DNA from: Bacilli bacterium
GTDB lineage: Bacteria; Bacillota_I; Bacilli_A; RFN20; CAG-826
Assembly (NCBI GenBank): GCA_017534425.1
Contig: JAFXWB010000002.1
Coordinates: forward strand, 1 to 62,998
Direction of reading: 5' to 3'
Length of the DNA stretch: 62,998 nucleotides
The notes under the pieces are model-generated. The model was not told where the DNA came from. It saw nothing but the letters and a program-made list of their open reading frames with translations, and did not search any database. Of the stretch, positions 2,909 through 49,124 are shown piece by piece. A program made the translations under genes and the position numbers. Every line of letters starts with the position of its first letter. Positions within the stretch are counted from its first letter, which is position 1.

Positions 2909-3598
2909 ATGGATAATGGTTTATCGGCTGCTGATGTTGCTCTTCTCAATCGTGATAATGATTTTGGATTTGGCGGTGGTGGTGCATTTATGTGGATTTT
3001 TGCACTACTTATTTTAGCCGGCGGTGGTTTCGGTGGTTTTGGTAACAACGGTTTTGCTAATGCTATCGGCTATGAAAACCTTGCTACAAGTAATGAAGTT
3101 CAGCGTGGATTTGATAATCAAAACAGTATGGCAAATCAACGTGAAATCCTTTCAGCAGTAAATGCAGGAACCGCACAGGCAGTAGCAGCAACTAATCAGA
3201 CATTCCATGATACACTTGGAATCATTCAGAATCGTTATGATGAACTTGCGAGAGATATTAGTGGTATTGCAGTTGCTCAAGCACAAACTGTTGCAAATCA
3301 AAATCAGTGCTGCTGCGATACTAAAATGCTTATTCAGCAAACTTCTGCTGATACTAACGCAAATATCGCACAGAGTAGGTATGATGCTGCAATGAATACT
3401 GCTAGTATCAATGCAACAACAACCGCTCAAACTCAGAGAATACTTGATGCTTTGGCACAAGATAAAATTGAAACATTGCAGAATCAAGTAAATCAGCTTC
3501 AACTTGCACAAGCAGTTGCTGGTGTAGTTAGATACCCAATGCAGTCTACATATTGTAGCGGAGCAAATCCATTTTGCGGTTGTGGCTGCGGTGCATAA
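2909..3598 (+). CDS. Gly-rich membrane-anchored protein with Cys clusters
   Basis: 229 aa, SD AAGGAGG. GFGGGGAFMWIFALLILAGGGFGGFG TM/Gly segment, long Ala/Gln/Asn-rich helical region, internal CCC, C-terminal CSGANPFCGCGCGA. Codon usage resembles the capsid and tail genes. Confidence 0.65.
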   Translation: MDNGLSAADVALLNRDNDFGFGGGGAFMWIFALLILAGGGFGGFGNNGFANAIGYENLATSNEVQRGFDNQNSMANQREILSAVNAGTAQAVAATNQTFHDTLGIIQNRYDELARDISGIAVAQAQTVANQNQCCCDTKMLIQQTSADTNANIAQSRYDAAMNTASINATTTAQTQRILDALAQDKIETLQNQVNQLQLAQAVAGVVRYPMQSTYCSGANPFCGCGCGA

Positions 3599-3634
3599 CT
3601 TGTTCTTAAATAGAGCGTATTAGTACGCCAAGTA

Positions 3635-3668
3635 AAAAGAGGTGTACGATAAATGGTACACCTCTTTT
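3635..3668 (+). terminator. Rho-independent terminator
   Basis: Stem AAAAGAGGTGTAC / GTACACCTCTTTT, 8-nt loop. Confidence 0.85.
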
Positions 3669-3744
3669 AAATTACAGAAATAATTACAGAAATTGATGAT
3701 TTAATCATGAAATTTGCAAATTTTTTGCAAAAAAGGAGGTTTAA

Positions 3745-4122
3745 ATGTTAGAAGCGTATAGTTTAAATGTTGAAGTTGCTGCTAATGCAGCTGTTCCTTT
3801 TAATAATGTTTCACTTGAAAAAGGGTGTACTGTAAAACTACAATCACCTGGCACTATTGCTCTTAATAAATGTGGTGTTTATATGGTTAGTTGTGATGCT
3901 AGTGCAGCTGCAACATCATCAATTCAACTTCATAAAGACGGTGTTGCGCAACCTCAAGCACAAGCAACAGGTGATACACCGTCATTTATTACTCTTGTTC
4001 AAGTAGACCATAATAATTGTGGTTGTTGTTGCTCTAGTCCTACAACACTTCAAGTATTAAATGTAGGAGATGCGGTGGCAACATTTACAAATATAAATGT
4101 AGCTGTAACAAAAGTATGCTAA
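3745..4122 (+). CDS. BclA C-terminal-domain-like (C1q/TNF-like jelly-roll) protein
   Basis: 125 aa, SD AAAGGAGG. The pattern AYSLN..VAANAAVPFNNV...GTIALNKCGVYMVSCDAS...IQLHKDGV...LQVLNVG...NINVAVTKV resembles exosporium BclA-type C-terminal domains. Contains CGCCC. Confidence 0.45.
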   Translation: MLEAYSLNVEVAANAAVPFNNVSLEKGCTVKLQSPGTIALNKCGVYMVSCDASAAATSSIQLHKDGVAQPQAQATGDTPSFITLVQVDHNNCGCCCSSPTTLQVLNVGDAVATFTNINVAVTKVC

Positions 4123-8806: not shown

Positions 8807-9481
8807 ATGGATAATTCAAATTGTATTTATCAAGGATTATGTAGACATGAATGCCCATCAACATGTATTCAGTGGGTAGAAATGAAGTATATGCTTAAAC
8901 ATAGCAATATACCAAAAGCCAAACAGTGCGTACATAGACTAAAACCAAAAGAATGTGATATACCAGCATTTGAAAGACTTTCTTCAATTCAAATGGACAT
9001 TGAAAATTTTGTTGATAATGGCGGTGTATTATACATTTATAGTAAACAATGCGGTAATGGAAAGACAACTTGGTCTATTAAAATGTTATTACAGTACTTC
9101 AATGAAGTGTGGGACGGAAATGGTTTACATACAAGGGGTATTTTTGTTAATGTTCCATCTTTCATAATGAAGTGTAAAAGTGTAATATCTACACCCGATG
9201 ATGAATTTGAAGAACTTAGGTCACACCTAGATACTGTTGATTTAGTGGTGTTTGATGATGTATCGGCAATAGGGAAAGTGTCCGGATTTGATTATACAAG
9301 TTTATATGGGCATATTGATAGCAGGTGCTTACAAGGAAAAGCAATGATATTTACAGGTAATCATACACCTGAACAATTAAATGAAATACTAGGAGATAGA
9401 TTAGCAAGTCGTATATGTCAAGGTATTAATATTGAGTTAAAGGGAGGAGATATGCGGTCATGGTGCAAGAGCAATTATTGA
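8807..9481 (+). CDS. DnaC/IstB-like AAA+ helicase loader
   Basis: Walker A CGNGKTTW, Walker B DLVVFDDV, Cys-rich N-terminus. Immediately upstream of the DnaB-like helicase. Confidence 0.65.
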   Translation: MDNSNCIYQGLCRHECPSTCIQWVEMKYMLKHSNIPKAKQCVHRLKPKECDIPAFERLSSIQMDIENFVDNGGVLYIYSKQCGNGKTTWSIKMLLQYFNEVWDGNGLHTRGIFVNVPSFIMKCKSVISTPDDEFEELRSHLDTVDLVVFDDVSAIGKVSGFDYTSLYGHIDSRCLQGKAMIFTGNHTPEQLNEILGDRLASRICQGINIELKGGDMRSWCKSNY

Positions 9482-10734
9482 ACTTGGTATTAGCTAAAAA
9501 AGACTTTTCAATATTAGTTGATAACAATATAGACGAAAACTATTTCCCAGAATATATTGATGAATATAATTTTATAAAAGACCATGTTAATGAATATAAA
9601 GTTGTTCCTGATATAGAGTCATTTTGCTCTAAGTTTACAAGTTTCGATGTTTTAGATGTAACTGAAAGTGAAAGGTATTTAGTAAATACAATTCGTGAAG
9701 AGTATTTATACTCAAAAAGTGTTCCCGTAATTAAAAGAGCCGCTGAATTATTAAAGACTGATGCTAATGCAGCTTCACAATATTTACAGTCTGAATTAGT
9801 AAATTTAACACCTAATTACAGTACTCCTAGTGTTGATATTATTCACGATAATTCTCGTATGAACTTGTTTTCTGAAAAAGCACAAAACAAGGATAAGTAT
9901 TTCATACCGACAGGGTTTAAAGAATTGGACGATGTTGTGTGTGGTTGGCAACAAGGCGAGGAATATGTTGTTATATATGCTCGTACAGGAAATGGTAAAT
10001 CATGGGTACTTGTTAAGTCAATGCAACACGCATGGTTAATGGGTAAAAATGTTGGTTATATATCGCCCGAAATGTCGGCGGATAAAATAGGTTATCGTTT
10101 TGATACTTTATATAAACATTTTTCAAATACCGCTTTAACAAGAGGTAATCAGTCCGTAGTTACACTTGATGATTATAACAGTTACTTTGAAGAATTATCG
10201 AAGCAATCAAACAAATTTTTGGTAGCAACACCATTAGATTTTAATAAAAAGATAACTATAAGTAAATTGCGTACTTGGGTTACTAAAAATAAACTTGATG
10301 TTCTTGCAATTGACGGTATCACTTACCTATCTGATGAACGTTATAAAAAAGGAGATAATAAAACAATATCATTAACTAATTTATCAGAAGATTTAATTCA
10401 ATTGAGCGTTGAATTAAAAATCCCTATTTTGGTAGTTGTGCAATCAAACAGGGGTGGTGTAAAAGAGGAAGCAGATGCGACACCAGAACTTGAAGATATT
10501 AGGGATAGTGATGGTATAGCACATAATGCAACTAAAAGCATATCACTTAAAAAGAAAGATGACTCTTTGATTATGTCAATTAAGAAAAATCGTGATGGTG
10601 TTATGGGAACAAAACTTAAATATCAATGGGATGCTGACACCGGAGATTTTCAATATATTCCTGATAATGATATAGATAGACCACAACGTACTGCAAGTAA
10701 ACCGCAAAAACAAGAAGGGAAAGTAGCGTTTTGA
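9460..10734 (+). CDS. dnaB: DnaB-family replicative helicase
   Basis: 424 aa. Walker A ARTGNGKSW, DnaB C-terminal RecA-like domain (LAIDGITYL, VVVQSNRG). Confidence 0.85.
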   Translation: MVQEQLLNLVLAKKDFSILVDNNIDENYFPEYIDEYNFIKDHVNEYKVVPDIESFCSKFTSFDVLDVTESERYLVNTIREEYLYSKSVPVIKRAAELLKTDANAASQYLQSELVNLTPNYSTPSVDIIHDNSRMNLFSEKAQNKDKYFIPTGFKELDDVVCGWQQGEEYVVIYARTGNGKSWVLVKSMQHAWLMGKNVGYISPEMSADKIGYRFDTLYKHFSNTALTRGNQSVVTLDDYNSYFEELSKQSNKFLVATPLDFNKKITISKLRTWVTKNKLDVLAIDGITYLSDERYKKGDNKTISLTNLSEDLIQLSVELKIPILVVVQSNRGGVKEEADATPELEDIRDSDGIAHNATKSISLKKKDDSLIMSIKKNRDGVMGTKLKYQWDADTGDFQYIPDNDIDRPQRTASKPQKQEGKVAF

Positions 10735-11702
10735 TTAAAGTAAATGAGTCTTATATATCAGCTGAAATAAGCGATATAATAAAAGAATTAAAAACTGAAT
10801 TAGAATTAAATGGTATTAAACGATTTTATAAATCAATTGATACTCCAAAGAACTATATGGTGTGTTGTCCTTTTCATAAAAAAGGACAAGAGAAGAGACC
10901 ATCAATGGGAATATTGAAAAAAGATGGTACATCTCATTGTTTTGCTTGTCAGTGGACAGGTAGTATAACTGAAATGATTAGTAATTGCTTTGGTTATGAT
11001 GATTTTGGGATATTTGGAAGTAAATGGCTTATAAAAAATTTTTTGACATTAGAGGTAGAGAAACGCAATGACATTCAGCTTGATTTTAGCCGCAATAGCC
11101 GGATTGATAGTAATACTAATACTTATGTCAGACCCGAGGAACTAGATAAATATAGATGTTATCCACCACATCCATATTGGGCAAAAAGGGGTATAACAGA
11201 TGAACGTATCATTGAATTATTTGATTTGGGATATGACAAAGAAACCGATTGTATCACATTCCCAGTCCGAGATATTAAAGGCAATTGCTTGTTCATCGCT
11301 CGCAGGTCTGTACGCACAAAGTACTTTCATTATCCCTCAGGTGTTGAGAAACCGTTATATGGTATATATGAATTATATCAGCTAAATAATATGCCTAAAG
11401 AATTGATAATATGTGAAAGTATGTTAGATGCACTTACTTGTTGGCAATATGGTAAATATGCAGTAGCATTAAATGGTTTAGGAAACGAATTATCTATTGC
11501 ACAAATAAAGAAACTCCCATGTCGAAAAGTTATACTTGCAACTGATAAAGATGATGCTGGTAAAAAAGCAAGAATACGATTAAGAAAGGAGTTGAATAAT
11601 AAAATTGTTACTGAATTGAATTATAAAACATATCCAGACCATGCTAAAGATATGAATGATATGACAAGAGAAGAATTTTATGCATTAGGAGAAGTTTTTT
11701 AA
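10731..11702 (+). CDS. dnaG: DNA primase (CHC2 zinc finger + TOPRIM)
   Basis: TTG start overlapping the dnaB stop. CCPFHKKGQEKRPSMG...HCFACQWTG zinc finger. TOPRIM motifs ICESMLDALT and LATDKDDAGKKA. Confidence 0.85.
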   Translation: MIKVNESYISAEISDIIKELKTELELNGIKRFYKSIDTPKNYMVCCPFHKKGQEKRPSMGILKKDGTSHCFACQWTGSITEMISNCFGYDDFGIFGSKWLIKNFLTLEVEKRNDIQLDFSRNSRIDSNTNTYVRPEELDKYRCYPPHPYWAKRGITDERIIELFDLGYDKETDCITFPVRDIKGNCLFIARRSVRTKYFHYPSGVEKPLYGIYELYQLNNMPKELIICESMLDALTCWQYGKYAVALNGLGNELSIAQIKKLPCRKVILATDKDDAGKKARIRLRKELNNKIVTELNYKTYPDHAKDMNDMTREEFYALGEVF

Positions 11703-13128: not shown

Positions 13129-13205
13129 TTCAATTACTATATATTTAATTGTACAAATTAAACCGACAAAAACACAAAAAGACCAAAAGTCGAAAGGAGA
13201 AATGT

Positions 13206-13865
13206 ATGGGAAGAATAAGTTTTGGTGACCTTGATAATTATGGGTCCAATGGTGCATATTTTCAGTTGAAAGACAACGGTAATAAAGCCAATGTACGTTT
13301 TTTGTATAATACCATTGATGATATTACACCTTATGTTGTTCATTCAATTCCTGATGGTACTTATCCAAATGGTAATCCTAAAACCGCATATGTTAACTGC
13401 CTTAGAAATTATGATGAACCTGTTGATAAGTGTCCGTTTTGTAAAGCAGGAATGACAGTTCAGCCAAAGTTAATGCTTAAACTGTATAACGAAGACGCAA
13501 AAGAGTGTCAAATTTGGGAGCGTGGTAAGGCATATGCGTCTCGTATGGCTAACTTAGCATCACATTTCAACCCACTTGTAAATGAAGTAATTGAAATTAC
13601 AAGGTGTGGTGCGAAGGGTGATAATCAGACAACATATGAGTTTATGCCTGTTGGTAATTCACCAGCTAATGTAGAGGATTTTGATTGTGTAGAACCACTT
13701 GGATTTAACATACTTGATAAAACTGCTGATGATATGGAAGCATATTTGAACCTCGGTGCATTTCCTGGTGATAGTGCAAATGTATCACAACAGAGAAATA
13801 ACAATAATCAGTATAACGGAAATGTTGTTAGACGTACACCGCCTACTAATTCAAGGGCATTTTAA
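13206..13865 (+). CDS. T4 gp32-like single-stranded DNA-binding protein
   Basis: ATG 13206 lies 5 nt after AAAGGAGA. YFQLKDNGNKANVRFL resembles the gp32 segment LKLD..GNG.AVIRFL. The Zn-site-like residues are C..(H)...CPFC. Confidence 0.55.
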   Translation: MGRISFGDLDNYGSNGAYFQLKDNGNKANVRFLYNTIDDITPYVVHSIPDGTYPNGNPKTAYVNCLRNYDEPVDKCPFCKAGMTVQPKLMLKLYNEDAKECQIWERGKAYASRMANLASHFNPLVNEVIEITRCGAKGDNQTTYEFMPVGNSPANVEDFDCVEPLGFNILDKTADDMEAYLNLGAFPGDSANVSQQRNNNNQYNGNVVRRTPPTNSRAF

Positions 13866-13874
13866 TTGAAGTGC

Positions 13875-13945
13875 AGGGGTATAGCCAAGCGGTAAGGCGG
13901 AGGACTTTGACTCCTTAATCGTTGGTTCGATTCCAACTATCCCTG
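13875..13945 (+). tRNA. tRNA-Gln (anticodon UUG)
   Basis: Cloverleaf by hand: acceptor AGGGGTA/TATCCCT, D-arm GCC-AAGCGGTAA-GGC, anticodon arm GAGGA-CUUUGAC-TCCTT, T-arm GTTGG-TTCGATT-CCAAC, discriminator G. Close to Firmicute tRNA-Gln. CCA is not encoded. Confidence 0.85.
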
Positions 13946-14461
13946 TTTGTCCTTTATAAGGACATAGAACTCCCATTACATCACATAAAGGTGCAGCCAC
14001 TTTGTAAAAAGTGCTTTATATGATGTAGGAATTTAATTATTAGTTATCATGCAGAGCATAACGAATTTTTAAATTCCAAAGTTGTTTATTATTGTTATGG
14101 TGCTATATCGATAATGAACAATCCTAGCAGTATTATTTTTTATGGTATGATTAACGCTGTGAAAAACTTGTTTATATCAATCGAATCGGCTATTACATAT
14201 CAGATAGCTTGGGTAACTATTAACTTGTGTGGATACCCATAAGATTATTTCATCTTGTGGTTAAGAAAAATAATCGTTTTCAAGTACATGACAACCTGAT
14301 TGATGTAGACCTTATCGTTTAAGTTTCACACTATATCTTCTCACTTCTTCCAAACCGAATAGACTTATAGTGAGGTTTATAAAACGATTTTAAATTGCAA
14401 ACCCATAATCCTTTCCTACCGAGGTTGGGTTGTTTGTTGTTTGTTTTTACCAAAGAGAGGT
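13946..14461 (+). ncRNA. Candidate large structured non-coding RNA (about 515 nt) between a tRNA and a tRNA-like element
   Basis: No ORF on either strand. Hand-found helices are:
- 13948-13964
- 13976-14028 (14 bp, capped by an inner CACTTT-GTAA-AAAGTG GNRA hairpin)
- 14028-14077 (GGAATTTAA/TTAAATTCC)
- 14082-14121 (11 bp)
- a long-range AATCGTTTT/AAAACGATT pairing (about 14272 with about 14382)
- CACTATA/TATAGTG
- ACCCA/TGGGT. Confidence 0.35.
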
Positions 14462-14544
14462 TGTAGTGTAACTCAGTTGGCTAGAGGAAGTTGTAAAGCC
14501 CATCCCTTTACAGTGTGTCGTGGGTTCAAGTCCCACCACTACAA
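14462..14544 (+). tRNA. tRNA-like element / aberrant tRNA (83 nt) with a non-canonical anticodon arm
   Basis: Acceptor TGTAGTG/CACTACA (8 bp if T14461-A14544 is included), D-loop AGTTGG, perfect T-arm GTGGG-TTCAAGT-CCCAC. The anticodon arm is a 7-8 bp stem TTGTAAAG/CTTTACAG with loop CCCAUCC (14499-14505), which lacks U33 and a purine at position 37. Confidence 0.5.
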
Positions 14545-14662
14545 TGCGCCCCTTTAGCCCAAAACGTGCGAGTCTTTATGGGACAATAAAGACGGGAACT
14601 AAGGTTGCGTAGTAGTATCAGCAGTGGTACTACTACGACCTATAAAAGAATAAGGAGTGATT

Positions 14663-16954
14663 ATGGCACTATTTGATTTACCAGAATCACGAAGTAATAG
14701 AGAAGCCGACAAAGCTGTTGTTAATAAGACCACCAACAAGCGGTCGGCTTCAATTGTTATGAAAGGTGATGGTATATTAGCTAAAATTTCAGCTATCAAT
14801 GCATTAGTTGAAAGTAAGTTAGGGCAATATAAAAATGAATATGATATTGCATGGGCAGATAATAATGTATTTGATACTGTAATTAAATCTTGTGTTAAGA
14901 ATGGTATATGTGCGATTGATACTGAAACAACCGGACTTAATCCTATTTCAGATGAAATAGTTGGTATGAGTATTTATACTCCTGATGAAAAGGCTATTTA
15001 TATTCCCATTCATCATGTAAGTTATATAACAGGTGTTGAAGTAGAAAATCAAATGCAAATAGATGAAATTCGTAAAGGATTACAATTACTTGTAGATAAT
15101 GATGTAAAAATCATTATGCACAATGCCAAGTTTGATATAAGGGTTATATGGAATAAAATTGGTATTAGACTTAAATGTTGGTTTGATACTCAATTAGCCG
15201 CACAATGCTTAAATGAAAATGAACCGCATAAATTAAAAATACTTCACCCTAAATATGTTCAAGGATTAACTGAAGAACAAAGAAAACAACAAGGTAAATT
15301 GTCGTTTGATGATTTATTTGAAGGTGTAACTTTTGATAAGATACCAATAAAAACGGGATTTGTATATGGTGCAAGGGACTCTATAATAACGTTTGAGTTA
15401 TACGAATTTCAGTTACCTTATTTAACGGTTGATAATCCAAAATGTATTGAGCAAGAATTACAAAGTGTTTGTAATGTATTCTGGAATATTGAAATGCCTT
15501 TTGTTGATGTAATAGTTGATTTAGAGCAAAACGGTATTTCATTAGATGTTGAATATGCACATAAACTTTCTGAAAAATATCATAAAATATTAGACCAAAA
15601 TATGAAAGATTATGAAAGTGTATTAGACAATTATAAAAAAGAAATTGAAGAATATAAAAAGAAAAATGTAAATCATAAATTATCAGACCCAATTTCAGTA
15701 TCAAGTCCAAAACAATTAGCCACTTTGATATATGATATTTTGAAAGTTGAACCACCCGATAAAGATAACCCACGTGGTACGGGAATTGAAATACTTGAAA
15801 AAATTGATAATCCATTATGTAAAGCAATATTAGCATGTAGGAAAACTGAAAAATTACTTAGTACTTATATTGATAAACTGCCTAACGAATTATTAAAAGA
15901 TGGTAAAATACATTGTTCTTTTAATCAATATGGTGCGAAGACAGGTAGGTTAAGTAGTGATAATCCCAACATGCAAAATATTCCATCACATAATAAAGAT
16001 GTGAGAAAAATGTTTGTTGCAAGTCCTGGAAACGTTTTAATATCATGCGATTTTTCACAACAGGAACCTCGTGTAATGACAGCTATGTGTGGTGACCCTG
16101 AAATGAGAAAAGCATATATTGAAGGACGTGATTTGTACGCTAGTATTGCAAGTATAGCATATAATGTATCATATGATGATTGTTTAGAAAAGTTTCCTGA
16201 TGGTACAACTAATCCTGAAGGAAAAGACCGGCGTGATAGTGCAAAAAGTATTTTCTTAGGTGTTTTGTATGGACGTGGTATAAACTCAATTGCAGAACAA
16301 TTACATACTACAAAACAAAAAGCACAAAAGATACAAAGTAGTATATTTAAAGAATTTCCTGCAATTAAACAATTCAGTGAAGATAGTTTAGACATGGTTG
16401 TTGAAAAAGGATATGTTACAACGTTTTGGGGAAGGAAAAGGCGACTTCCTGATATGCAATTACCCGAATATGAGTTTAAGTGGAAACCTGGTTATGGTGA
16501 TATAGACCCATTATCGTTTTATACAGAAGTAACTGAATTAGAAGTACCGGACGATATTGTTGAAGAATATACATATAAACTTAATAACTGTAATTGGAAA
16601 GATAAATCAAATATAAAACAACAAGCTGAAAAAGAAGGTATTATCATTATAGACAATGGTGGTAAAATTGCAGACGCAACCAGGCAAGTTGTTAATTCAC
16701 GTATTCAAGGTAGTGCGGCTGATATGTCAAAAATAGCTGGGATAAATATCAGTAAAAATGAACGATTAAAAGAATTGGGATTTAAATTATTAGTACCAAT
16801 ACATGATGAATACTTAGGCGAATGTCCGTATGAAAATAAAGATGAATGTGTTGAATTATTTAAACAATGCATGTGCGATGCTGCAAAAGAAACAGGATTG
16901 CCAATAAAAGTTGATGTAGTTGTATCTTATGAGTGGTACGGTGAAGCTATTTAA
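14663..16954 (+). CDS. polA: Family A DNA polymerase with 3'-5' exonuclease domain
   Basis: Exo I AIDTETTGL, Exo II HNAKFD, Pol motif A DFSQQEPR, motif B RRDSAKSIFLGVLYG, motif C VPIHDEY. ATG 14663 lies 5 nt after AAGGAG. Confidence 0.9.
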   Translation: MALFDLPESRSNREADKAVVNKTTNKRSASIVMKGDGILAKISAINALVESKLGQYKNEYDIAWADNNVFDTVIKSCVKNGICAIDTETTGLNPISDEIVGMSIYTPDEKAIYIPIHHVSYITGVEVENQMQIDEIRKGLQLLVDNDVKIIMHNAKFDIRVIWNKIGIRLKCWFDTQLAAQCLNENEPHKLKILHPKYVQGLTEEQRKQQGKLSFDDLFEGVTFDKIPIKTGFVYGARDSIITFELYEFQLPYLTVDNPKCIEQELQSVCNVFWNIEMPFVDVIVDLEQNGISLDVEYAHKLSEKYHKILDQNMKDYESVLDNYKKEIEEYKKKNVNHKLSDPISVSSPKQLATLIYDILKVEPPDKDNPRGTGIEILEKIDNPLCKAILACRKTEKLLSTYIDKLPNELLKDGKIHCSFNQYGAKTGRLSSDNPNMQNIPSHNKDVRKMFVASPGNVLISCDFSQQEPRVMTAMCGDPEMRKAYIEGRDLYASIASIAYNVSYDDCLEKFPDGTTNPEGKDRRDSAKSIFLGVLYGRGINSIAEQLHTTKQKAQKIQSSIFKEFPAIKQFSEDSLDMVVEKGYVTTFWGRKRRLPDMQLPEYEFKWKPGYGDIDPLSFYTEVTELEVPDDIVEEYTYKLNNCNWKDKSNIKQQAEKEGIIIIDNGGKIADATRQVVNSRIQGSAADMSKIAGINISKNERLKELGFKLLVPIHDEYLGECPYENKDECVELFKQCMCDAAKETGLPIKVDVVVSYEWYGEAI

Positions 16955-16963
16955 GGAGGAATT

Positions 16964-17941
16964 ATGAGTTTTGATTTGTATTTAGCATCGGCTGATGATG
17001 CTAAAATAATTGATTATATGTATGAAAATGACTATCCCTTGTTGTATAGTCAGTTGAATAACAGAAATTACATTTTAAAACACTTTGCTGCGCAAGAACA
17101 AAATATAACGCATGGTAAGTTGTTAGTTGATAGCGGTGCGCATTCTGCACATACTAAAGGCGTTAAACTTGATTTAGAAGAGTATATTGGTTTTGTAAAT
17201 GACAATATTGATAAAATGTCTTTATATGTACAAGTAGATAAAATTCCTGGTGTATATCGTAAACCAAAAACTGCAAAAGATTGGCTTGAAGCACCACAAT
17301 TAAGTTGGGAAAATTATTTGTATATGAAGGAAAAATCAAAGGACTGGACTAAACTTGTTCCTGTATTTCATCAAGGAGAGGATTATAAGTGGTTGGAAAA
17401 CTTGTGTGATTATGAGTTTTCAGACGGAAGTCATATACCATATATCGGACTTTCTCCTCGTGGTGATGTATCACTACAAGCTAAATATGATTTTTGTGCT
17501 AAGTGTTTTGCGGTAATTCAGAAAAGTAAAAACCCTAAAGTAAAAACTCATGCATTTGGAGCAACAAGTTTATCAATGTTGGAACGTTTACCATTTACAT
17601 CAGCAGATAGTACAACATGGGTACTTGTATCAGCATTTGGACAGGTGTGGATACCAACAGGAATAACAGGTGAAAGTGTTGATGATACAGTTGGAGTTAA
17701 ATTAGGGGTAAGTAAAGAAAACATAAATCATCAGACTGCAACATGGACATATTGGGAACAAAAACCTGAAATAAAAAAGAAGTTAGACGATTATTTTGAA
17801 AGTATTGGAACTAATATTGAAAAATTGTCTGAAAGTCATTCAGAGCGTAGTTTAGCCAGTGCTAAGTTTTGTCAAAATTGGGCTAAAAATTATCAATATA
17901 AAGGATTAGAAAAATTTACAAGTGTTAAGTCATTATTTTAA
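16964..17941 (+). CDS. dpdA: DpdA-like (TGT-fold) 7-deazaguanine DNA transglycosylase candidate
   Basis: 325 aa, SD AAGGAGG. The motifs LLVDSGAHSAH, VPVFHQGEDYKWLE, YIGLSPRG, THAFGATS and FTSADSTTW match the pattern of phage DpdA / archaeosine-TGT-like proteins. Confidence 0.6.
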   Translation: MSFDLYLASADDAKIIDYMYENDYPLLYSQLNNRNYILKHFAAQEQNITHGKLLVDSGAHSAHTKGVKLDLEEYIGFVNDNIDKMSLYVQVDKIPGVYRKPKTAKDWLEAPQLSWENYLYMKEKSKDWTKLVPVFHQGEDYKWLENLCDYEFSDGSHIPYIGLSPRGDVSLQAKYDFCAKCFAVIQKSKNPKVKTHAFGATSLSMLERLPFTSADSTTWVLVSAFGQVWIPTGITGESVDDTVGVKLGVSKENINHQTATWTYWEQKPEIKKKLDDYFESIGTNIEKLSESHSERSLASAKFCQNWAKNYQYKGLEKFTSVKSLF

Positions 17942-17950
17942 GGAGGAATT

Positions 17951-18574
17951 ATGATTTTATTTTTAGGAGACAGCTTAACGGAAGGCAGTAATAGCAAATT
18001 TTCATTTACTGATTATTTACCACCTGAGTATGAAATATTTAACTTAGGTGTAAGTGGAACTACAATTGGTGAATATTCTATATACCCTGTTGATGGTAAC
18101 AGTTTATTAGGTGTTATTGGAACTCATGGTGATTTGATACAGAGCGCAGATGAAATATTTATTGAATATGGTAGTAATGATGTATCAGCAATAATGTGTG
18201 GTTTTGCTACAATTCAAACTGTAATTGTGTCTTTTGTAAAAGCAATCGATTGGATAAAACAGTTAAATCCAAATGTTAGAATTCATTTTTTAGCATTTGG
18301 GGAAAGTGATAATATAATTTTAAGTCGTGGGATAAATATGTGTAATTACTTAGAAAAAGATTATTTTAGTAAATTTGATTTTAAATTTCCTGTAAGTATG
18401 TATGTAAGTACTTATAAAAAACTTATCTCACATATCAGTAAAGTCTGCGATATAATGTATATGTTTGACGATGAAATGATAAAAGATGAATTTTTGTCTG
18501 ACGATAATATTCACCCAAATGAAATCGGTCATGAGAGAATTGCTAAAAATATATTGAAACAAATTAGGGCTTAA
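17951..18574 (+). CDS. SGNH/GDSL-family hydrolase
   Basis: Block I FLGDSLTEG, block III YGSNDV, block V DDNIHPN. Confidence 0.75.
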   Translation: MILFLGDSLTEGSNSKFSFTDYLPPEYEIFNLGVSGTTIGEYSIYPVDGNSLLGVIGTHGDLIQSADEIFIEYGSNDVSAIMCGFATIQTVIVSFVKAIDWIKQLNPNVRIHFLAFGESDNIILSRGINMCNYLEKDYFSKFDFKFPVSMYVSTYKKLISHISKVCDIMYMFDDEMIKDEFLSDDNIHPNEIGHERIAKNILKQIRA

Positions 18575-18610
18575 CTTCATTTCCCTATTTGCATAATAAA
18601 ACTAAGGAGG
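18565..18610 (+). promoter_or_regulatory. Candidate preQ1-I-like riboswitch / translational leader of the YhhQ gene
   Basis: P1 UAGGG/CCCUA (18565-69 / 18583-87). Loop CUUA can pair with UAAG in the tail. The tail ...AAUAAAACUAAGGAGG resembles the canonical preQ1-I 3' tail and contains the SD. The tail is about 5 nt longer than typical. Confidence 0.3.
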
Positions 18611-18618
18611 ATAATTAA

Positions 18619-19299
18619 ATGAAGCAAAAACTAAAAAAGTATGAGGTGATGGCTTATTTCATGGCGGTGTATTGTACATTTACAGTTGTACAAAACCTCT
18701 TTGAAATGAAAACACTAGGAACAGACGCATTTGCGTTTGGTGGTGGTGGTGGTTTATTATCATGGGCAACATTTATGATAATAGATATTTCAACTGAATT
18801 GTTTGGTAAGAAAGATACAATCAAGTTGTACACTTTCGCAGGATTATTAAATTTATTTATTGTGGTAATTGCTCAAGTAATTATAGCATTACCGGGAGTA
18901 TATCCTGAACAAAACGAAGCATTTAGACTGATATTTAGTAATGGTATAAGAACAGCCTTTTCATCATTCGCAGCATTTTGGGTTGGTAATTTCATCAATA
19001 TGACTGTTATGATTAAGATGAAAGAACAAGCAGGTGAGCATGACAATAAATTCTTATTGTTTGTACGTGCGGTATTATCTACAATAGTTGGACAGTTTGT
19101 TGATAACTTTACATTTGCTACACTTGCATTTGCACCTATTGGTATTTCAGCATTTGAAATGACTTGGAAAGCAATATTTACATCATCATGTTTTGGAACA
19201 TTTATGGAAACTGTAAATGAAAGTATCTTTGTTCCATTTATTACAATTCCCTCTATTACAAAACTTAAGGGAAGATTTGAAGAGGAGCAAGTAGCATGA
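18619..19299 (+). CDS. yhhQ: YhhQ/VUT-family queuosine-precursor (7-deazapurine) transporter
   Basis: 226 aa, multi-TM. VRAVLSTIVGQFVDNFTFATLAF and the overall DUF165-like layout. Confidence 0.7.
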   Translation: MKQKLKKYEVMAYFMAVYCTFTVVQNLFEMKTLGTDAFAFGGGGGLLSWATFMIIDISTELFGKKDTIKLYTFAGLLNLFIVVIAQVIIALPGVYPEQNEAFRLIFSNGIRTAFSSFAAFWVGNFINMTVMIKMKEQAGEHDNKFLLFVRAVLSTIVGQFVDNFTFATLAFAPIGISAFEMTWKAIFTSSCFGTFMETVNESIFVPFITIPSITKLKGRFEEEQVA

Positions 19300-19856
19300 G
19301 TACAAAAACAAAGGTATTAACTACAATTGCATTGTCGGTGGCTATAAACATTGTTGGTAGTAAAATATCCTTGTTTTTAAGTTTACCGATATTTTTAGAT
19401 AGTATTGGTACAATTTTAGCTGGTGCTACGTTGGGACCGATAGCTGGATTAGTAACTGCATTGGTTGGTGGATTAGTAAATGGTGTATTGGGTGATATAT
19501 ATTCAATATATTTTGCACCCTCAGGAATGATAATGGGTTTACTTGCAGGTGTGGTATTATACCATAAAAAAGTTACAAAACTATCTGTAATATGGAAAAC
19601 TGCTTTAATTTCAGTACCGGCATCTTTTGTATCAGCACTTATTTCTACATATGTTTTTGGTGGTATTACATCAGCACTTCTTACAACAACTATTATTCAA
19701 GGGTTATCAAAAACTGTAATGGATTTATTTACAAGTGCTTTTGTAACACAAACATTAACTGATTATGTAGATAAACTTATTGCTGTGGTTTTAACACTTG
19801 TAATAATAAAACGTATACCACGTGGTATGTTGTATTTTGCTGATAACAAGCAATGA
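19296..19856 (+). CDS. ECF-transporter S-component-like membrane protein (QueT/QrtT-like by context)
   Basis: 186 aa, 5-6 TM. LDSIGTILAGATLGPIAGLVTALVGGLVNG is typical of ECF S components. Translationally coupled to yhhQ. Confidence 0.55.
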   Translation: MSTKTKVLTTIALSVAINIVGSKISLFLSLPIFLDSIGTILAGATLGPIAGLVTALVGGLVNGVLGDIYSIYFAPSGMIMGLLAGVVLYHKKVTKLSVIWKTALISVPASFVSALISTYVFGGITSALLTTTIIQGLSKTVMDLFTSAFVTQTLTDYVDKLIAVVLTLVIIKRIPRGMLYFADNKQ

Positions 19857-41400: not shown

Positions 41401-41406
41401 TACAAT

Positions 41407-41438
41407 AAAGAGGGGTAAATAAAAAAGCCCCTCTTTTT
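41407..41438 (+). terminator. Rho-independent terminator
   Basis: AAAGAGGGG / CCCCTCTTT stem followed by TTT. Confidence 0.8.
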
Positions 41439-41629
41439 GTCACTATAAATAATACCCTTATAAAAACCACTCATAAAATAAACCAGCGAGGGGAGCGGGG
41501 AAGAGTTAAACTAAAAGGAGATGTAATATAGCATTAGCTACAACAAGTATTTATATCAAGTTATGCTATATGTAAAGCATCAAATTAGTAAAAAACCAGC
41601 CAGATTCCGGGAAAGTGAGGAATGAAAAA

Positions 41630-42076: not shown

Positions 42077-42106
42077 TTGTGCATTTTATATAGTTTGGGT
42101 ATAGTG

Positions 42107-42154
42107 AAAAGACAGGGTTGATTGTGCATATTGCATAAAATCCTGTCTTTTTTA
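42107..42154 (+). terminator. Rho-independent terminator
   Basis: AAAAGACAGG / CCTGTCTTTT stem with a large structured loop, followed by a T-run. Confidence 0.65.
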
Positions 42155-42182
42155 GTGTATTTTCCGCCCAGCAACACAGAAT

Positions 42183-42230
42183 TGTCTAACAAAATTTGTC
42201 TAACTATGTGAGTTTCTATCTATTTAGACA
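42183..42230 (+). repeat. TGTCTAAC motif cluster A
   Basis: Forward copies at 42183 and 42197, and an inverted partial copy (TTAGACA) at 42224 inside the TCTATCT/AGATAGA inverted repeat. Confidence 0.6.
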
Positions 42231-42259
42231 GATAGATGTAAGTTTCTAGGCAGAAAAAG

Positions 42260-42426
42260 GAAGAAAAATGAATTGTGTGAAGAAAAGACACAATTTGTAC
42301 CTGGATAGAATACCCCTTGGTTGACCTACTTCTTAATTTCTTCAAAGAAATTGTCTTGTTTTTACCCCTATGAAATACAAAAATGTAAGCGAAGAAAAAT
42401 GAATTGTGTCCGGCTTAGATACAATT
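42260..42426 (+). repeat. Two 19-nt direct repeats, each leading into an AATTGTGT...ACAATT inverted repeat
   Basis: GAAGAAAAATGAATTGTGT at 42260-42278 and 42391-42409. Inverted repeats at 42271-78/42288-95 and 42402-09/42419-26. Confidence 0.6.
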
Positions 42427-42449
42427 TAAAAATAGTCTTTTAAAAAGTA

Positions 42450-42478
42450 TTGACATATTATTCATTATGATGTAATAT
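42450..42478 (+). promoter_or_regulatory. Consensus sigma-A promoter P7
   Basis: TTGACA (42450-55), 17-nt spacer, TAATAT (42473-78). Confidence 0.65.
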
Positions 42479-42544
42479 ATAATCAACAACAAACAACAAA
42501 CCGATTTACATAATCGGTACTTATTCAATAGGAGGAATGTAATT

Positions 42545-43120: not shown

Positions 43121-43148
43121 TAATAGCATACTCATATTCATTAGAATT

Positions 43149-43177
43149 GACCGGAGTGTTGTTGCTCCGGTCTTTTC
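43149..43177 (+). terminator. Rho-independent terminator
   Basis: GACCGGAG / CTCCGGTC stem followed by TTTT. Confidence 0.8.
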
Positions 43178-43181
43178 ATTT

Positions 43182-43225
43182 TGTCTAACAATCTCTCGCT
43201 AAATGTCTAACAATTTCTGTCTAAC
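43182..43225 (+). repeat. TGTCTAAC motif cluster B
   Basis: Forward copies at 43182, 43204 and 43218. Confidence 0.6.
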
Positions 43226-43382
43226 GAGAATTCGCTAATTGGCTAGGAAGAAATCTTGCTAGACAACTATTATATCCGGACAGAATACGTGCGGTATAGT
43301 ATCTGGATGGATATATACCAAATATGAAAAACACGCCGGCTTGATGGTGTGAAAATAATTCAGGTTATTTTAGTAAAAACAC

Positions 43383-43410
43383 TTTACATTTATATTTATT
43401 ATGATACAAT
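43383..43410 (+). promoter_or_regulatory. Promoter P8
   Basis: TTTACA, 16-nt spacer, TGaTACAAT (the -10 hexamer is at 43405-43410). Confidence 0.5.
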
Positions 43411-43457
43411 AATTATAGTAACAAACAACAAATATTTAAATGATTGGTGGTGATTAT

Positions 43458-44677: not shown

Positions 44678-44905
44678 TTCTTGCTCGAATATTTTTCGTA
44701 TTACTGTTTCTAGGTCGCTATCACAACATTCTTGCTCCTATATTTTTCACATTACTGACTCCAGGTCGCTAATATTCTTGTTCTGCTATTTTTAACTATA
44801 CTGTTGCCAGGTCAATGACTTTCTTGTTCTGCTATTATTCTTTATTATTCTATATTCGTAGATTTTTCGCTGCTATTTTTCTTGTATATTGTTCCCGGAT
44901 TGTTA
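44678..44905 (+). repeat. Tandem direct repeats of 46-51 bp (3 good units plus degenerate units) just upstream of terL
   Basis: Units start at 44678, 44729, 44775 and 44821. The shared core is TTCTTG(C/T)TC..(A/C)TATTTTT..A(T/C)TACTG....CCAGGTC. Confidence 0.7.
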
Positions 44906-44928
44906 TATAATATTTATGAGGTGAATAT

Positions 44929-46263
44929 ATGGCTAATATTTCAGTTGATTTAGATGTATCGAAATTATGGATTAAGAAATTTGATGTTGTATTTCAGGAT
45001 ATTATGCAACATAAACATACTCATTATGATTTCCCGGGAGGTCGTGGTAGTACTAAATCATCATTTATTGGTGGTCGTACTATCCCTTTACTTCTTATCG
45101 CTAACCCGAATTGCCATGCGGTTGTTTATAGGAGGTTTGGGAATACTTTAAAAACAAGTGTTTATGCTCAAATACAGTGGGGAATTTATGATTTAGGGTT
45201 GCAGGATTATTTTATTTTTCATAGCAATCCTTTAGAGATAATTTACAGGACTACAGGGCAAAAAATACTATTTTTAGGCATGGACGACCCGGGTAAAGTA
45301 AAATCAATAAAATTACCGTTTGGGTATATAGGGATTACATGGTGGGAGGAGTTAGACCAATTTGAAGGAGAGGCTCAAATTCGTAAAGCTCAACAATCAA
45401 CAATGCGTGGCGGGCCTATTTATTGGAATTTTATGTCTTATAATCCACCTATTTCAGTCAATAATTGGGCTAATGAATTTACAGAAGATTGCGAGAGAAA
45501 TAGGAAGGACGATACTTTAGTTGTTCGGACGACTTACTTAGATGTACCGCAGGAATGGCTAGGTCAACAGTTCATTGAAGAAGCAGAATATTTACAACAA
45601 ACTAATCCACGTGCTTATGAAAATGAGTATATGGGAATTCCTGTCGGTACAGGCGGGAATGTTTTTGATAATGTTGAGCATATGGATATGCCTGACAGTC
45701 TTATTGCTACTTTTGACCGGATTTACAATGGTTTAGACTGGGGTTTTGCTAATGACCCTAACCATTTTGTTAAAGTGCATTTTGATAGTGCTAGGCAAGA
45801 TTTATATATATTTGCAGAGCATAGGGCAACCCATGAAACTAATATTCAACTCTTTGAATTTTTGTATAAAGAAAACCATTTTAAAAAGAGGGTTTGGAAA
45901 ATTGTTGATGGACAAGAGATGGTGGAATTTATAGACGCACCGTTAATGGAAATGAATGAATTGATAACTGCAGATAGTGCTGACCCTAAATCAATTGCAG
46001 ACTTTAAAGCGTATGGGTGTTTTATGCGTGGTGCGGAAAAAGGACCAGAATCAGTTCGTTACGGAATTAAATGGCTTCAATCATTACGACATATTTATAT
46101 AGATAAACATAGGTGCCCGGATACTTATGATGAATTTATTAAATATGAGTTTGAAAGGGACAAAGAAGGGAAAATTATCAGTGTTCCTCCGGATAAAAAC
46201 AATCACAGCGTCGATTCCATTCGATATGCTCTTGAACGTTACTATAAGCATAAAGGTCAGTAA
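44929..46263 (+). CDS. terL: Terminase large subunit
   Basis: 444 aa, SD GAGGTGA. Walker A-like FPGGRGSTKSSF, Walker B-like ITWWEELDQ, and a C-terminal nuclease region (ADSADPKS...HSVDSIRYAL). Confidence 0.8.
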   Translation: MANISVDLDVSKLWIKKFDVVFQDIMQHKHTHYDFPGGRGSTKSSFIGGRTIPLLLIANPNCHAVVYRRFGNTLKTSVYAQIQWGIYDLGLQDYFIFHSNPLEIIYRTTGQKILFLGMDDPGKVKSIKLPFGYIGITWWEELDQFEGEAQIRKAQQSTMRGGPIYWNFMSYNPPISVNNWANEFTEDCERNRKDDTLVVRTTYLDVPQEWLGQQFIEEAEYLQQTNPRAYENEYMGIPVGTGGNVFDNVEHMDMPDSLIATFDRIYNGLDWGFANDPNHFVKVHFDSARQDLYIFAEHRATHETNIQLFEFLYKENHFKKRVWKIVDGQEMVEFIDAPLMEMNELITADSADPKSIADFKAYGCFMRGAEKGPESVRYGIKWLQSLRHIYIDKHRCPDTYDEFIKYEFERDKEGKIISVPPDKNNHSVDSIRYALERYYKHKGQ

Positions 46264-48342: not shown

Positions 48343-48488
48343 TATTTACAACAGATAATTTATATTATATAATAATAATGTAGAAAGACCCTAGCGTAAA
48401 GGGATATAAAGAAACGCACATTCAGGCGGAAACTGTAAACCGCAGTTATAAATAACAGATATAAAGAATGTAAAGGAGATTTAGTAGT

Positions 48489-49124
48489 ATGGTATTAAAA
48501 GAGGTCTTTGACAAAGCCGAGAATGGTTCGTTAACTTGGGAGCAATTTCAAGCACTAGCGAAAGATGCAAAATTCGTTGATTTAAACGAAGGTAACTACT
48601 ATTCAAAGGCAAAACATGCAGATGAGCTTGAAGCAAAAGACAAGCAAATCACTACTCTTAATGAAACCATTAAGACAAGAGATACTGATTTAGCAACACT
48701 CAAGCAACAACTTGCAGATGCAGGTACTGATGCCGCAAAACTTGAGGAGTTGAACGGTCAGCTTACTGATTGGCAAACTAAGTATGACAAGGATACAAAG
48801 TCATACAAAGAACAATTGAAGAAGCAGGCTTATGAATTTGCTGCAAAGGAGTATGCTAATTCCCTTGATTTTTCAAGTGAAGCTGCAAAGAGAGACTTTA
48901 CACAATCATTGATTGCGAAAAATCTCCAAATGGAAAAAGATACAATATTAGGTGCAGACGACTTTTTGAATGTTTATAAACAGTCAAATGAAAAAGCGTT
49001 TGTGGTAAAAGAACCAGAACCTGAAACACCACCAGCACCGAGTTTCGGACAACCAACACCACCTACACCACAATCAGATGTAGATGATTTTTCAAAGTTA
49101 TTTACTTTTGATGGTGTAAGGTAA
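48489..49124 (+). CDS. Scaffolding protein
   Basis: 211 aa, long coiled coil, Pro-rich C-terminal segment. Lies between the portal and capsid genes. Confidence 0.65.
   Translation: MVLKEVFDKAENGSLTWEQFQALAKDAKFVDLNEGNYYSKAKHADELEAKDKQITTLNETIKTRDTDLATLKQQLADAGTDAAKLEELNGQLTDWQTKYDKDTKSYKEQLKKQAYEFAAKEYANSLDFSSEAAKRDFTQSLIAKNLQMEKDTILGADDFLNVYKQSNEKAFVVKEPEPETPPAPSFGQPTPPTPQSDVDDFSKLFTFDGVR

Follow-up and report, generated by a model that had tools for sequence, protein, structure and literature searches.

A candidate structured RNA between a tRNA-Gln gene and a tRNA-like element in the replication operon of a Firmicute siphophage

A Candidate Structured RNA Upstream of the DNA Polymerase Gene

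The contig JAFXWB010000002.1 (GenBank assembly GCA_017534425.1, deposited under the name of a Bacilli bacterium) was analyzed over positions 1-62,998, and this whole stretch of 62,998 nucleotides (nt) is called the window below. It represents the genome of a Firmicute siphophage of ~60 kb, with virtually all genes on the + strand. Between the gene encoding the single-stranded DNA-binding protein (SSB) and the gene encoding the family A DNA polymerase, there are a tRNA-Gln(UUG) gene and, further downstream, an element with the shape of a tRNA; the spacer between the two, 13947-14461 on the + strand, is the subject of this work. We propose that this spacer is a previously undescribed structured RNA that lies outside any Rfam family and is excised from the operon transcript, and we assign this reading a probability of about 0.5. 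The proposed RNA (Table 1) would start with the P0 hairpin, which abuts the 3' end of the tRNA, continue with an optional block of three hairpins (H1-H3), and contain a conserved core at ~14127-14388 composed of the P1 hairpin, the P2 domain and the P4/P3 domain. The changes observed in P0-P3 among the three available sequences, together with the folding of the spacer, point to a conserved + strand RNA structure. A first-pass annotation of the window had suggested a structured non-coding RNA here, and that suggestion is supported: at least four helices are kept by compensatory or G.U changes, and the coding readings fail.

The minimum free energy (MFE) of the 515-nt spacer is -129.8 kcal/mol. 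Relative to dinucleotide shuffles, the z-score of the spacer is -5.85 for the + strand and -3.25 for the - strand. The H1-H3 block (13977-14122), which consists of three abutting hairpins, has z-scores of -5.18 (+) and -3.54 (-), and the core, ~260 nt in length, has a z-score of -3.04 on the + strand vs. -1.31 on the - strand. The predicted fold is composed of serial local hairpins, one four-way junction (P2), one small 3' domain (P4/P3), and at most one candidate pseudoknot. The hairpins of the P2 junction are located at 14188-14209, 14210-14239, and 14243-14275. In the P4/P3 domain, AAACC (14352-14356) and GGUUU (14374-14378) are invariant; as a hypothesis only, they could pair with each other, making a pseudoknot with the P3 loop.

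The 14-bp stem with the GUAA cap listed by hand in the first-pass annotation corresponds to H1, its 9-bp stem to H2, and its 11-bp stem at 14082-14121 to the longer H3. Two hairpins that it placed past the tRNA-like element are also present (GUCUUUA/UAAAGAC and 14608-14620/14625-14637). The segments of its long-range pairing, AAUCGUUUU/AAAACGAUU (14272-14280/14381-14389), are exactly complementary, but the MFE fold and the comparative data prefer P4 (14314-14320/14382-14388).

Comparative Evidence for the RNA Structure

A search with the SSB protein revealed two contigs with homologues of the spacer, L068 and L069 (L numbers designate the loci collected for comparison), each located directly 3' of a tRNA-Gln gene. 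L068 is a JGI contig of 1470 nt; its SSB is 92% identical to that of the window, and the tRNA-Gln sequences are identical. The level of identity of the L068 spacer is ~97% up to window position 14295 and ~55-60% from there to the end of the contig (~14400). This drop in identity looks like a recombination breakpoint. L069 is a Logan contig of 2730 nt with an SSB that is 73% identical and a tRNA-Gln that differs. In L069, the tRNA-Gln is followed by a hairpin, then AACUCCCA, and then directly by a homologue of 14127-14197, at which point the contig ends. Since the sequence passes from AACUCCCA straight to the homologue of 14127, H1-H3 are missing in L069 and the block is optional. The window, L068, and L069 make up the homologue set, in which both L068 and L069 are cut off by contig ends.

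In the position of P0, L069 has a 6-bp hairpin, UACUCA/UGAGUA, in the same register and 3 nt before AACUCCCA, with four double compensatory pairs. When the 21-nt segment was shuffled, a perfect 6-bp hairpin was obtained in 3% of cases (p ~0.03). In P1, two outer pairs are altered on both sides in L069 (G.U to U-A and C-G to U-A), and the single L068 change converts G.U to A-U. The MFE fold contains a helix at 14136-14146/14156-14166 that competes with P1; this helix is broken by G14145A in both homologues. In the closing helix of P2, all four L068 substitutions keep the pairing (G-C to G.U, U.G to U-A, U.G to C-G, and U-A to U.G), the estimated probability of this by chance being ~0.25, and the P2 interior is identical in L068. 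The strand of P2 is fixed as +, because the - strand gives two A.C mismatches in each sequence.

P3 falls in the part of L068 with low identity, and its stem is replaced there. The window stem is CACUAUAUCU/AGA(CU)UAUAGUG, and the L068 stem is AUGUUAAAUA/UAUUAAACAU, 10 bp in length with nine of the ten positions paired. The replacement stem lies between the same flanks, CGUUUAAGUUU and AGGUUUAUAAAACGAU, and its loop keeps UCAC..CCAAACC; a terminal stem of this kind was formed in 0.1% of shuffles (p ~0.001). Under structural alignment, seven pairs of P3 differ on both sides, a count that depends on the alignment, because MAFFT sets the 5' arm one column off. P4 is conserved, with one A-U to G.U change. 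The H1-H3 block of L068 carries four substitutions: one in a loop, one in a bulge, A14035G (A-U to G.U), and G14063U, which turns an A.G mismatch into an A-U pair. As a whole, the L068 spacer adopts the same predicted architecture, with a z-score of -6.92.

The P2 region contains AAUCGAA (14179-14185), the complement of the T-loop sequence UUCGAUU of the tRNA-Gln (13924-13930). This heptamer is kept in L068 and deleted in L069, so this complementarity is probably fortuitous.

The tRNA-Like Element and the Proposed Excision of the RNA

The first-pass annotation described the region as bracketed by a tRNA and a tRNA-like element, which agrees with the ARAGORN call of the tRNA and with the Rfam matches to both. 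The tRNA-Gln begins 8 nt past the SSB stop codon. In the tRNA-like element, the MFE structure is a cloverleaf whose acceptor, D, and T arms are canonical; the D-loop contains GG, and the T-loop reads UUCAAGU. The anticodon arm has a 9-bp stem and the loop CCCAUCC, with C33 and C37; thus, U33 and a purine at position 37, features needed for decoding, are both lacking. The 9-bp length of the stem also departs from the 5 bp of a decoding tRNA. ARAGORN missed the element at default settings; at an 80% threshold, the only setting that gave a call, the fold was a poor alternative one. A search for additional decayed tRNAs in the spacer using the Rfam tRNA model (E up to 10) and relaxed ARAGORN returned just the two known elements and artefacts.

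L037 is the closest relative with a known polymerase (70% amino acid identity). Its gene order is tRNA-Gln, a 68-nt spacer, a 73-nt tRNA-like element (L037 484-556; Rfam tRNA 45.1 bits), 145 nt, and the polymerase gene. Comparison of the L037 and window cloverleafs reveals two-sided changes at acceptor pair 4 (A-U to U-A) and at D-stem pair 13-22 (C-G to U-A); T-stem pairs 50-64 and 51-63 are also altered on both sides. The anticodon arm of the L037 element has 5 bp and a GUAG tetraloop. Given that the cloverleaf is kept by double changes and the anticodon arm is variable, what selection appears to maintain is the tRNA shape, not the ability to decode. We infer that such conservation of shape only would suit a signal for processing by RNase P or RNase Z. 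In L073, upstream of its tRNA-Gln (~3168-3273), a tRNA-shaped element with an insert of ~50 nt can be seen by eye, with no Rfam call.

The GT-rich leader of the tRNA-like element in the window aligns with the entire 68-nt spacer of L037. The GT-rich tract GGUUGGGUUGUUUGUUGUUUG occurs just 5' of a tRNA or tRNA-like gene in the window (14425-14450), in L037 (446-470), and in L071 (3770-3785), that is, also in two lineages without the 450-nt element described below; it may be a shared pre-tRNA leader.

A scan of the interval for promoters and terminators revealed no + strand terminator-like site and only weak promoter-like matches (9/12). In the absence of a separating promoter or terminator, the RNA would be made as part of the transcript that runs from the SSB gene to the polymerase gene. 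A canonical intrinsic terminator is present elsewhere in the window, at ~3634-3670 (AAAAAGAGGUGUAC...GUACACCUCUUUU), after the ORF (open reading frame) 2909-3598. On both strands, the fold windows of 3301-4100 are very stable, probably in large part because of this terminator. Its presence shows that the phage uses standard terminators, none of which is located in the studied interval.

The proposed biogenesis is as follows. The interval, co-oriented with its neighbors, would be transcribed with the SSB-polymerase operon. Host enzymes of tRNA processing would then excise tRNA-Gln and the tRNA-like element: RNase Z or 3' trimming would act at the CCA-less tRNA-Gln, and RNase P would cut where the tRNA-like element begins. 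This would release a discrete RNA of ~0.5 kb (~515 nt), its ends base-paired, and would leave the polymerase mRNA as a separate molecule that carries a conserved leader. In such a scheme of 'tRNA punctuation', the main role of the anticodon-less tRNA-like element would be to signal processing. In tRNA punctuation and in MALAT1-mascRNA, a non-decoding tRNA shape serves as the RNase P or RNase Z signal that sets the end of an adjacent long RNA and parts it from the neighboring transcript. Those systems are eukaryotic, nuclear or mitochondrial, whereas the mechanism suggested for the phage locus is read from a conserved cloverleaf with a non-canonical anticodon arm.

Comparison with Known RNA Families

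The models of Rfam 15 were searched with cmscan against 13700-14800 on both strands, with E-values up to 10 and permissive filters. E-values were multiplied by the 4227 families, so a match is listed if its per-family E is below ~0.002. The scan returned the two tRNA matches and sub-threshold noise (fragments of snoRNA, miRNA, and lncRNA models). No match to ROOL, GOLLD, HEARO, OLE, raiA, T-box, riboswitch, or Y-RNA models was found in this 1.1-kb target; the first five are those for which the first-pass annotation had suggested an Infernal scan. No ROOL or GOLLD was detected either when the full window, L068, and L069 were scanned at the gathering threshold.

ROOL RNAs (RF03087) have a mean length of 581 nt, occur in Firmicute phages and prophages and in rumen metagenomes, and are often located near tRNA genes, with which they are possibly co-transcribed (PMC5737381, PMC12286853). 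GOLLD RNAs (RF01998), whose function is unknown, are found near phage and prophage tRNA islands with tRNAs sometimes embedded or adjacent; they are often longer than 800 nt and contain a universally conserved 3' region (PMC12286853). The spacer resembles ROOL in its size of ~0.5 kb, in its phage context (the sample of one related contig is recorded as a gut metagenome), and in adjoining tRNA genes, as described for both families (PMC5737381, PMC12286853). Unlike ROOL, it has no covariance-model match, its 5' block is optional, it is present in just three lineages, and its predicted fold is devoid of multiple multistem junctions and pseudoknots. GOLLD is likewise phage-encoded near tRNAs, but the spacer is only 515 nt long, with a core of ~260 nt, and matches no model, including the conserved 3' domain of GOLLD. 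Membership of the ROOL/GOLLD class, suggested in the first-pass annotation, is therefore not borne out, given the lack of a covariance-model match and the different architecture. The permissive scan effectively refutes the idea of a divergent member of either family, which we regard as the least credible of all the explanations considered here. What the spacer shares with ROOL and GOLLD is only the genomic niche in phages beside tRNAs.

Two other RNAs invite comparison. The stable RNAs species 1 and 2 of phage T4 (rnaD and rnaC), ~120-140 nt in length, are encoded in the T4 tRNA cluster, which contains eight real tRNAs; they are released by the tRNA-processing machinery of the host, and their function is unknown. 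Like them, the spacer would be a phage RNA within a tRNA transcription unit. Unlike them, it has a locus with one tRNA and one anticodon-less tRNA-like element, and there is no sequence relationship. The bacterial Y RNA YrlA, found in bacteria and some phages, has tRNA-like acceptor, D, and T arms and a longer helix in place of the anticodon arm. The tRNA-like element of the window also combines these three arms with a lengthened anticodon helix; however, its arm has just 9 bp and a 7-nt loop, without a Ro-binding helix, and the Rfam Y-RNA models do not match it. No rsr gene was seen near the element.

Distribution among Related Phages

In 25 relatives from IMG/VR, with polymerases that are 46-65% identical to that of the window, the SSB-like gene abuts the polymerase gene, or an ORF of 75-134 amino acids (aa) lies between them. 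ARAGORN detected no tRNA in any of the 25, and Rfam detected none in the 15 that were scanned. The SSB-polymerase junctions of L040, L065, L066, and L067 are arranged likewise, without a tRNA. Lineages closer to the window, counted as five, have a tRNA-Gln at this position; one is present in L037, L039, L068, L069, L071, and L073; in L039 it stands by itself, and in L071 and L073 it has other flanking sequences. The element was absent in 32 IMG/VR relatives and in seven other relatives found by polymerase or SSB. Since the L037 spacer aligns to 14398-14461, the window has ~450 additional nt (13947 to ~14397) that begin exactly at the 3' end of the tRNA-Gln.

An nhmmer search of the collected loci with a profile of the window and L068 gave L069 as the only further match. 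BLASTn against INPHARED matched the tRNA and not the spacer, and BLASTn against PLSDB gave no match. Scans of JGI metagenomes and GTDB genomes with 18-mers returned only chance matches of 18-23 nt, and pattern scans of IMG/VR (five different 19-21-mers and degenerate, gapped motifs) found no real match. L070, considered as a possible homologue, was rejected as a chance match. Judged by these sequences, the distribution of the element is narrow: three lineages in a small group of related Firmicute siphophages, always 3' of tRNA-Gln(UUG).

From the comparison of these loci, the junction between the SSB and polymerase genes is an insertion hot spot. Homing endonuclease genes of the HNH/NUMOD4 type are located beside the polymerase gene in L036 (2909-3421), L039 (5403-5954), and L067 (6334-7002).

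Alternative Explanations

Several observations weigh against a structured RNA excised from the transcript. The homologue set contains just three sequences, two of them incomplete, and L068 is 97% identical to the window over the first 350 nt, so covariation statistics of the R-scape type are out of reach; the alignment dependence of the P3 count should be added to this. The distribution is very narrow, and the closest relatives do without the element: L037 has the tRNA-Gln and the tRNA-like element without the ~450-nt segment. The three-hairpin block is missing in L069, and taken together, these two loci make the element dispensable and modular. As a control, fold energy was regressed on GC content over 209 native 515-nt windows of the genome. 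After this GC adjustment, the spacer is just 2.4 standard deviations below the trend, and 4 of the 209 windows are more extreme, of which two overlap the region. The stability of the spacer is unusual for this genome, not extreme. For the 5' coding part of the polymerase gene (14701-15215, +), the departure below the GC trend (-29 kcal/mol) is similar in size to that of the spacer, which tempers how exceptional the stability of the latter appears. Lastly, cleavage by RNase P and RNase Z is deduced from the tRNA shapes alone.

The spacer could instead encode a small protein, for example, the hydrophobic 42-aa ORF at 14114-14242, which might be a type I toxin with a structured mRNA. This ORF starts with ATG in frame +3, where stop codons are fewest (5 in 171 codons), and its peptide is moderately hydrophobic. 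However, no Shine-Dalgarno sequence precedes it, unlike the polymerase gene, and gene callers called nothing in 13866-14656 on three independent, sequence-identical contigs. All four differences of L068 within the ORF are non-synonymous, each at a second codon position; in L069, the block that would contain the start is missing, and a 1-nt insertion and a 3-nt deletion disrupt the frame. Searches of Pfam and PHROG with three translated frames (+2, +3, and -1) and with the 42-aa peptide gave no match below E = 0.1, and when the spacer was searched by tblastn with the 1478 ORFs of 37 related loci, only noise was returned. A protein-coding role is thus very improbable. A decayed gene or homing endonuclease was rejected on the same lack of ORF similarity and Pfam or PHROG matches. 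A mobile element, either a miniature inverted-repeat transposable element (MITE) or a palindrome-associated transposable element (PATE), was rejected as well: the window contains no second copy, and five 19-21-mers had no IMG/VR match. A role at the DNA level, as a replication origin, a single-stranded DNA (ssDNA) initiation site, or a primosome-loading site with hairpins formed in the + strand ssDNA, would suit the position inside the helicase-primase-SSB-polymerase module. In addition, H1 and H2, both close to perfect palindromes and free of G.U pairs, fold on either strand. Hairpins in ssDNA also tolerate G.T pairs, so the + strand bias is not strict evidence against ssDNA. On the other side, the spacer contains no iterons, just short direct repeats in two copies; its GC content (~31%) equals the genome average, and the cumulative GC skew is monotonic, without an inflection around 14 kb. 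It is the palindromic block that L069 lacks, the covarying core helices depend on G.U pairs, and the closest relatives are without the element, which would be unexpected for an essential origin. A motif derived post hoc, GTNBTTTATA / TKBTTTATW, was tried as an iteron and is not enriched genome-wide. We consider a replication element improbable, with a higher standing than the protein reading.

Two further explanations have better prospects. The structure may be real and act in cis, not as an independent RNA with a role of its own but as a spacer or leader of the operon mRNA that governs how the polymerase message is processed or translated, how stable it is, or how much tRNA-Gln is obtained. 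The orientation shared with the neighboring genes, the lack of a terminator-like site, and the weakness of the promoter-like matches all agree with this, as do the modularity and dispensability of the element among relatives. Moreover, the spacer lies directly 5' of the region containing the polymerase leader, which has a conserved UGCGAG/GUCUU hairpin and possible anti-Shine-Dalgarno pairing. However, the tRNA shape that would be expected to sever the element from this leader is kept by compensatory changes, the leader motif occurs in L037 and L071, which lack the element, and no riboswitch or T-box model matches. We hold a role in cis to be unlikely overall, and nevertheless the foremost of the rivals. 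Close behind it, and also unlikely, is a spacer without function, left over from DNA inserted at a junction that collects tRNAs, small ORFs, and homing endonucleases. In most relatives, the SSB gene directly adjoins the polymerase gene, or a small ORF occupies the junction, and HNH genes stand beside the polymerase gene in some of them. The absence of the ~450-nt segment in L037 and of the hairpin block in L069, the failure of the searches that could be run to recover homologues from INPHARED, PLSDB, IMG/VR, JGI metagenomes, and GTDB genomes, and the scarcity of stop codons in frame +3 fit this explanation too. It is contradicted by the maintenance of P0, P1, P2, and P3 despite sequence change, by the strongly stable + strand folds of both the window and L068, and by the absence of protein similarity of any kind.

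Genomic Context

The coordinates of the features discussed here are given in Table 1. The DNA polymerase of the window is 45% identical to its counterpart in Clostridium phage phiCTP1 and 42% identical to that of Streptococcus phage Dp-1. Two unassigned ORFs are located between the primase and SSB genes. The longest ORF of the SSB gene opens with TTG at 13149. Eight contigs with an identical polymerase also carry an identical spacer and therefore add no variation.

Table 1. Features of the SSB-polymerase region and of the replication module (positions in the window).
Feature	Position	Strand	Description
DnaB-like helicase	9460-10734	+	replication module
DnaG-like primase	10731-11702	+	replication module
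SSB gene	13206-13865	+	PHROG 14578 'single strand DNA binding protein', E = 3.7e-42; same call on identical contigs
tRNA-Gln(UUG)	13874-13946	+	ARAGORN; Rfam tRNA 67.1 bits; CCA not encoded
P0 hairpin	13948-13964	+	7 bp, UGUCCUU-UAU-AAGGACA; abuts tRNA-Gln 3' end; no U-tract
H1	13977-14027	+	13977-13990/14014-14027, 13/14 paired; encloses CACUUU-GUAA-AAAGUG
H2	14028-14077	+	GGAAUUUAA/UUAAAUUCC at 14028-14036/14069-14077
H3	14081-14122	+	14081-14094/14109-14122, 14 bp including 3 G.U
P1 hairpin	14127-14160	+	14127-14136 with 14147-14151 and 14156-14160; RNAalifold consensus
P2 domain	14170-14310	+	13-bp closing helix 14170-14182/14298-14310; three main hairpins inside
P4/P3 domain	14314-14388	+	P4 14314-14320/14382-14388; P3 14329-14338/14361-14372; loop UCAC..CCAAACC
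GT-rich leader of tRNA-like element (GGUUGGGUUGUUUGUUGUUUG)	14398-14461	+	aligns with the entire 68-nt L037 spacer between tRNA-Gln and tRNA-like element
tRNA-like element	14462-14544	+	Rfam tRNA 39.4 bits (gathering 29), model positions 1-71; CCA not encoded
Polymerase leader	14566-14662	+	UGCGAG motif; hairpin GUCUUUA/UAAAGAC 14572-14594; 13-bp hairpin 14608-14637; AAGGAG; ATG 14663
DNA polymerase gene, family A	ATG at 14663	+	Shine-Dalgarno AAGGAG 14652-14657

The stretch 13866-14656 (791 nt) is the largest in the window without a + strand ORF of at least 45 aa, the runner-up being 468 nt. The first-pass annotation was thus right that the gap between the SSB and polymerase genes has no plausible ORF, and it overstated that the genome is otherwise packed, given that gaps of 200-470 nt exist at 41.4-45 kb. 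With the same cut-off, these + strand ORF-free stretches are 41401-41614, 42077-42544, 43121-43439, and 44714-44928 (214-468 nt each). They form a cluster upstream of ORFs beginning at 44929, and the fold window from 43201 is unusually stable, with a GC-adjusted residual of -26 kcal/mol.

The gene next after the polymerase gene (within 16964-19856) matches PHROG 887 'queuine tRNA-ribosyltransferase' (DpdA-like); further 3' come genes for a GDSL lipase-like protein, a Vut_1 protein (queuosine-precursor transporter), and an ECF transporter. The region 16964-19856 is suspected to be a 7-deazaguanine DNA-modification or salvage module. In the structural module, a GP20-a RNA motif (Rfam RF02991) was found at 48385-48482 (+), immediately 5' of the ORF 48489-49124, with 68.4 bits vs. 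a gathering score of 47.2.

Leader of the Polymerase Gene

The UGCGAG motif and a GUCUU/AAGAC hairpin occur together ~70-90 nt 5' of the polymerase start in the window, in L037 (640-699), and in L071 (4010-4108). UGCGAG alone is also present in L073 (~3545-3575); thus, the motif is found in four lineages and the hairpin in three. A second, variable hairpin sits just before the ribosome-binding site of the polymerase gene, and the 13-bp form at 14608-14637 is lineage-specific. In the MFE fold, CCUU (14551-14554) pairs with AAGG of the Shine-Dalgarno sequence. A parallel is offered by T4 gp43, which has a translational operator on its own message; by analogy, the polymerase leader could be a translational operator of this type.

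Implications

It is possible, and at present we hold it only tentatively, that 13947-14461 encodes the first example of a new class of large phage RNAs, excised from an operon transcript by enzymes of tRNA processing, with a tRNA at the 5' end and an anticodon-less tRNA mimic at the 3' end, and acting in trans in the course of infection. If this is true, its role may be of the kind speculated for ROOL and GOLLD, such as self-assembly or the sequestering of a host factor or a tRNA-related enzyme, and the CCAAACC loop with the possible pseudoknot would be the functional center. The anticodon-less tRNA mimic gives a directly testable route of biogenesis via RNase P and RNase Z, and being small, modular, and set in a replication operon, the element would be easy to dissect by deletion. 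Few families of large phage RNAs are known, and the presence of GOLLD and ROOL beside phage tRNA genes is a long-standing puzzle. A third, unrelated RNA in the same niche would suggest a recurrent phage strategy, in which a big folded RNA is co-transcribed with tRNAs.

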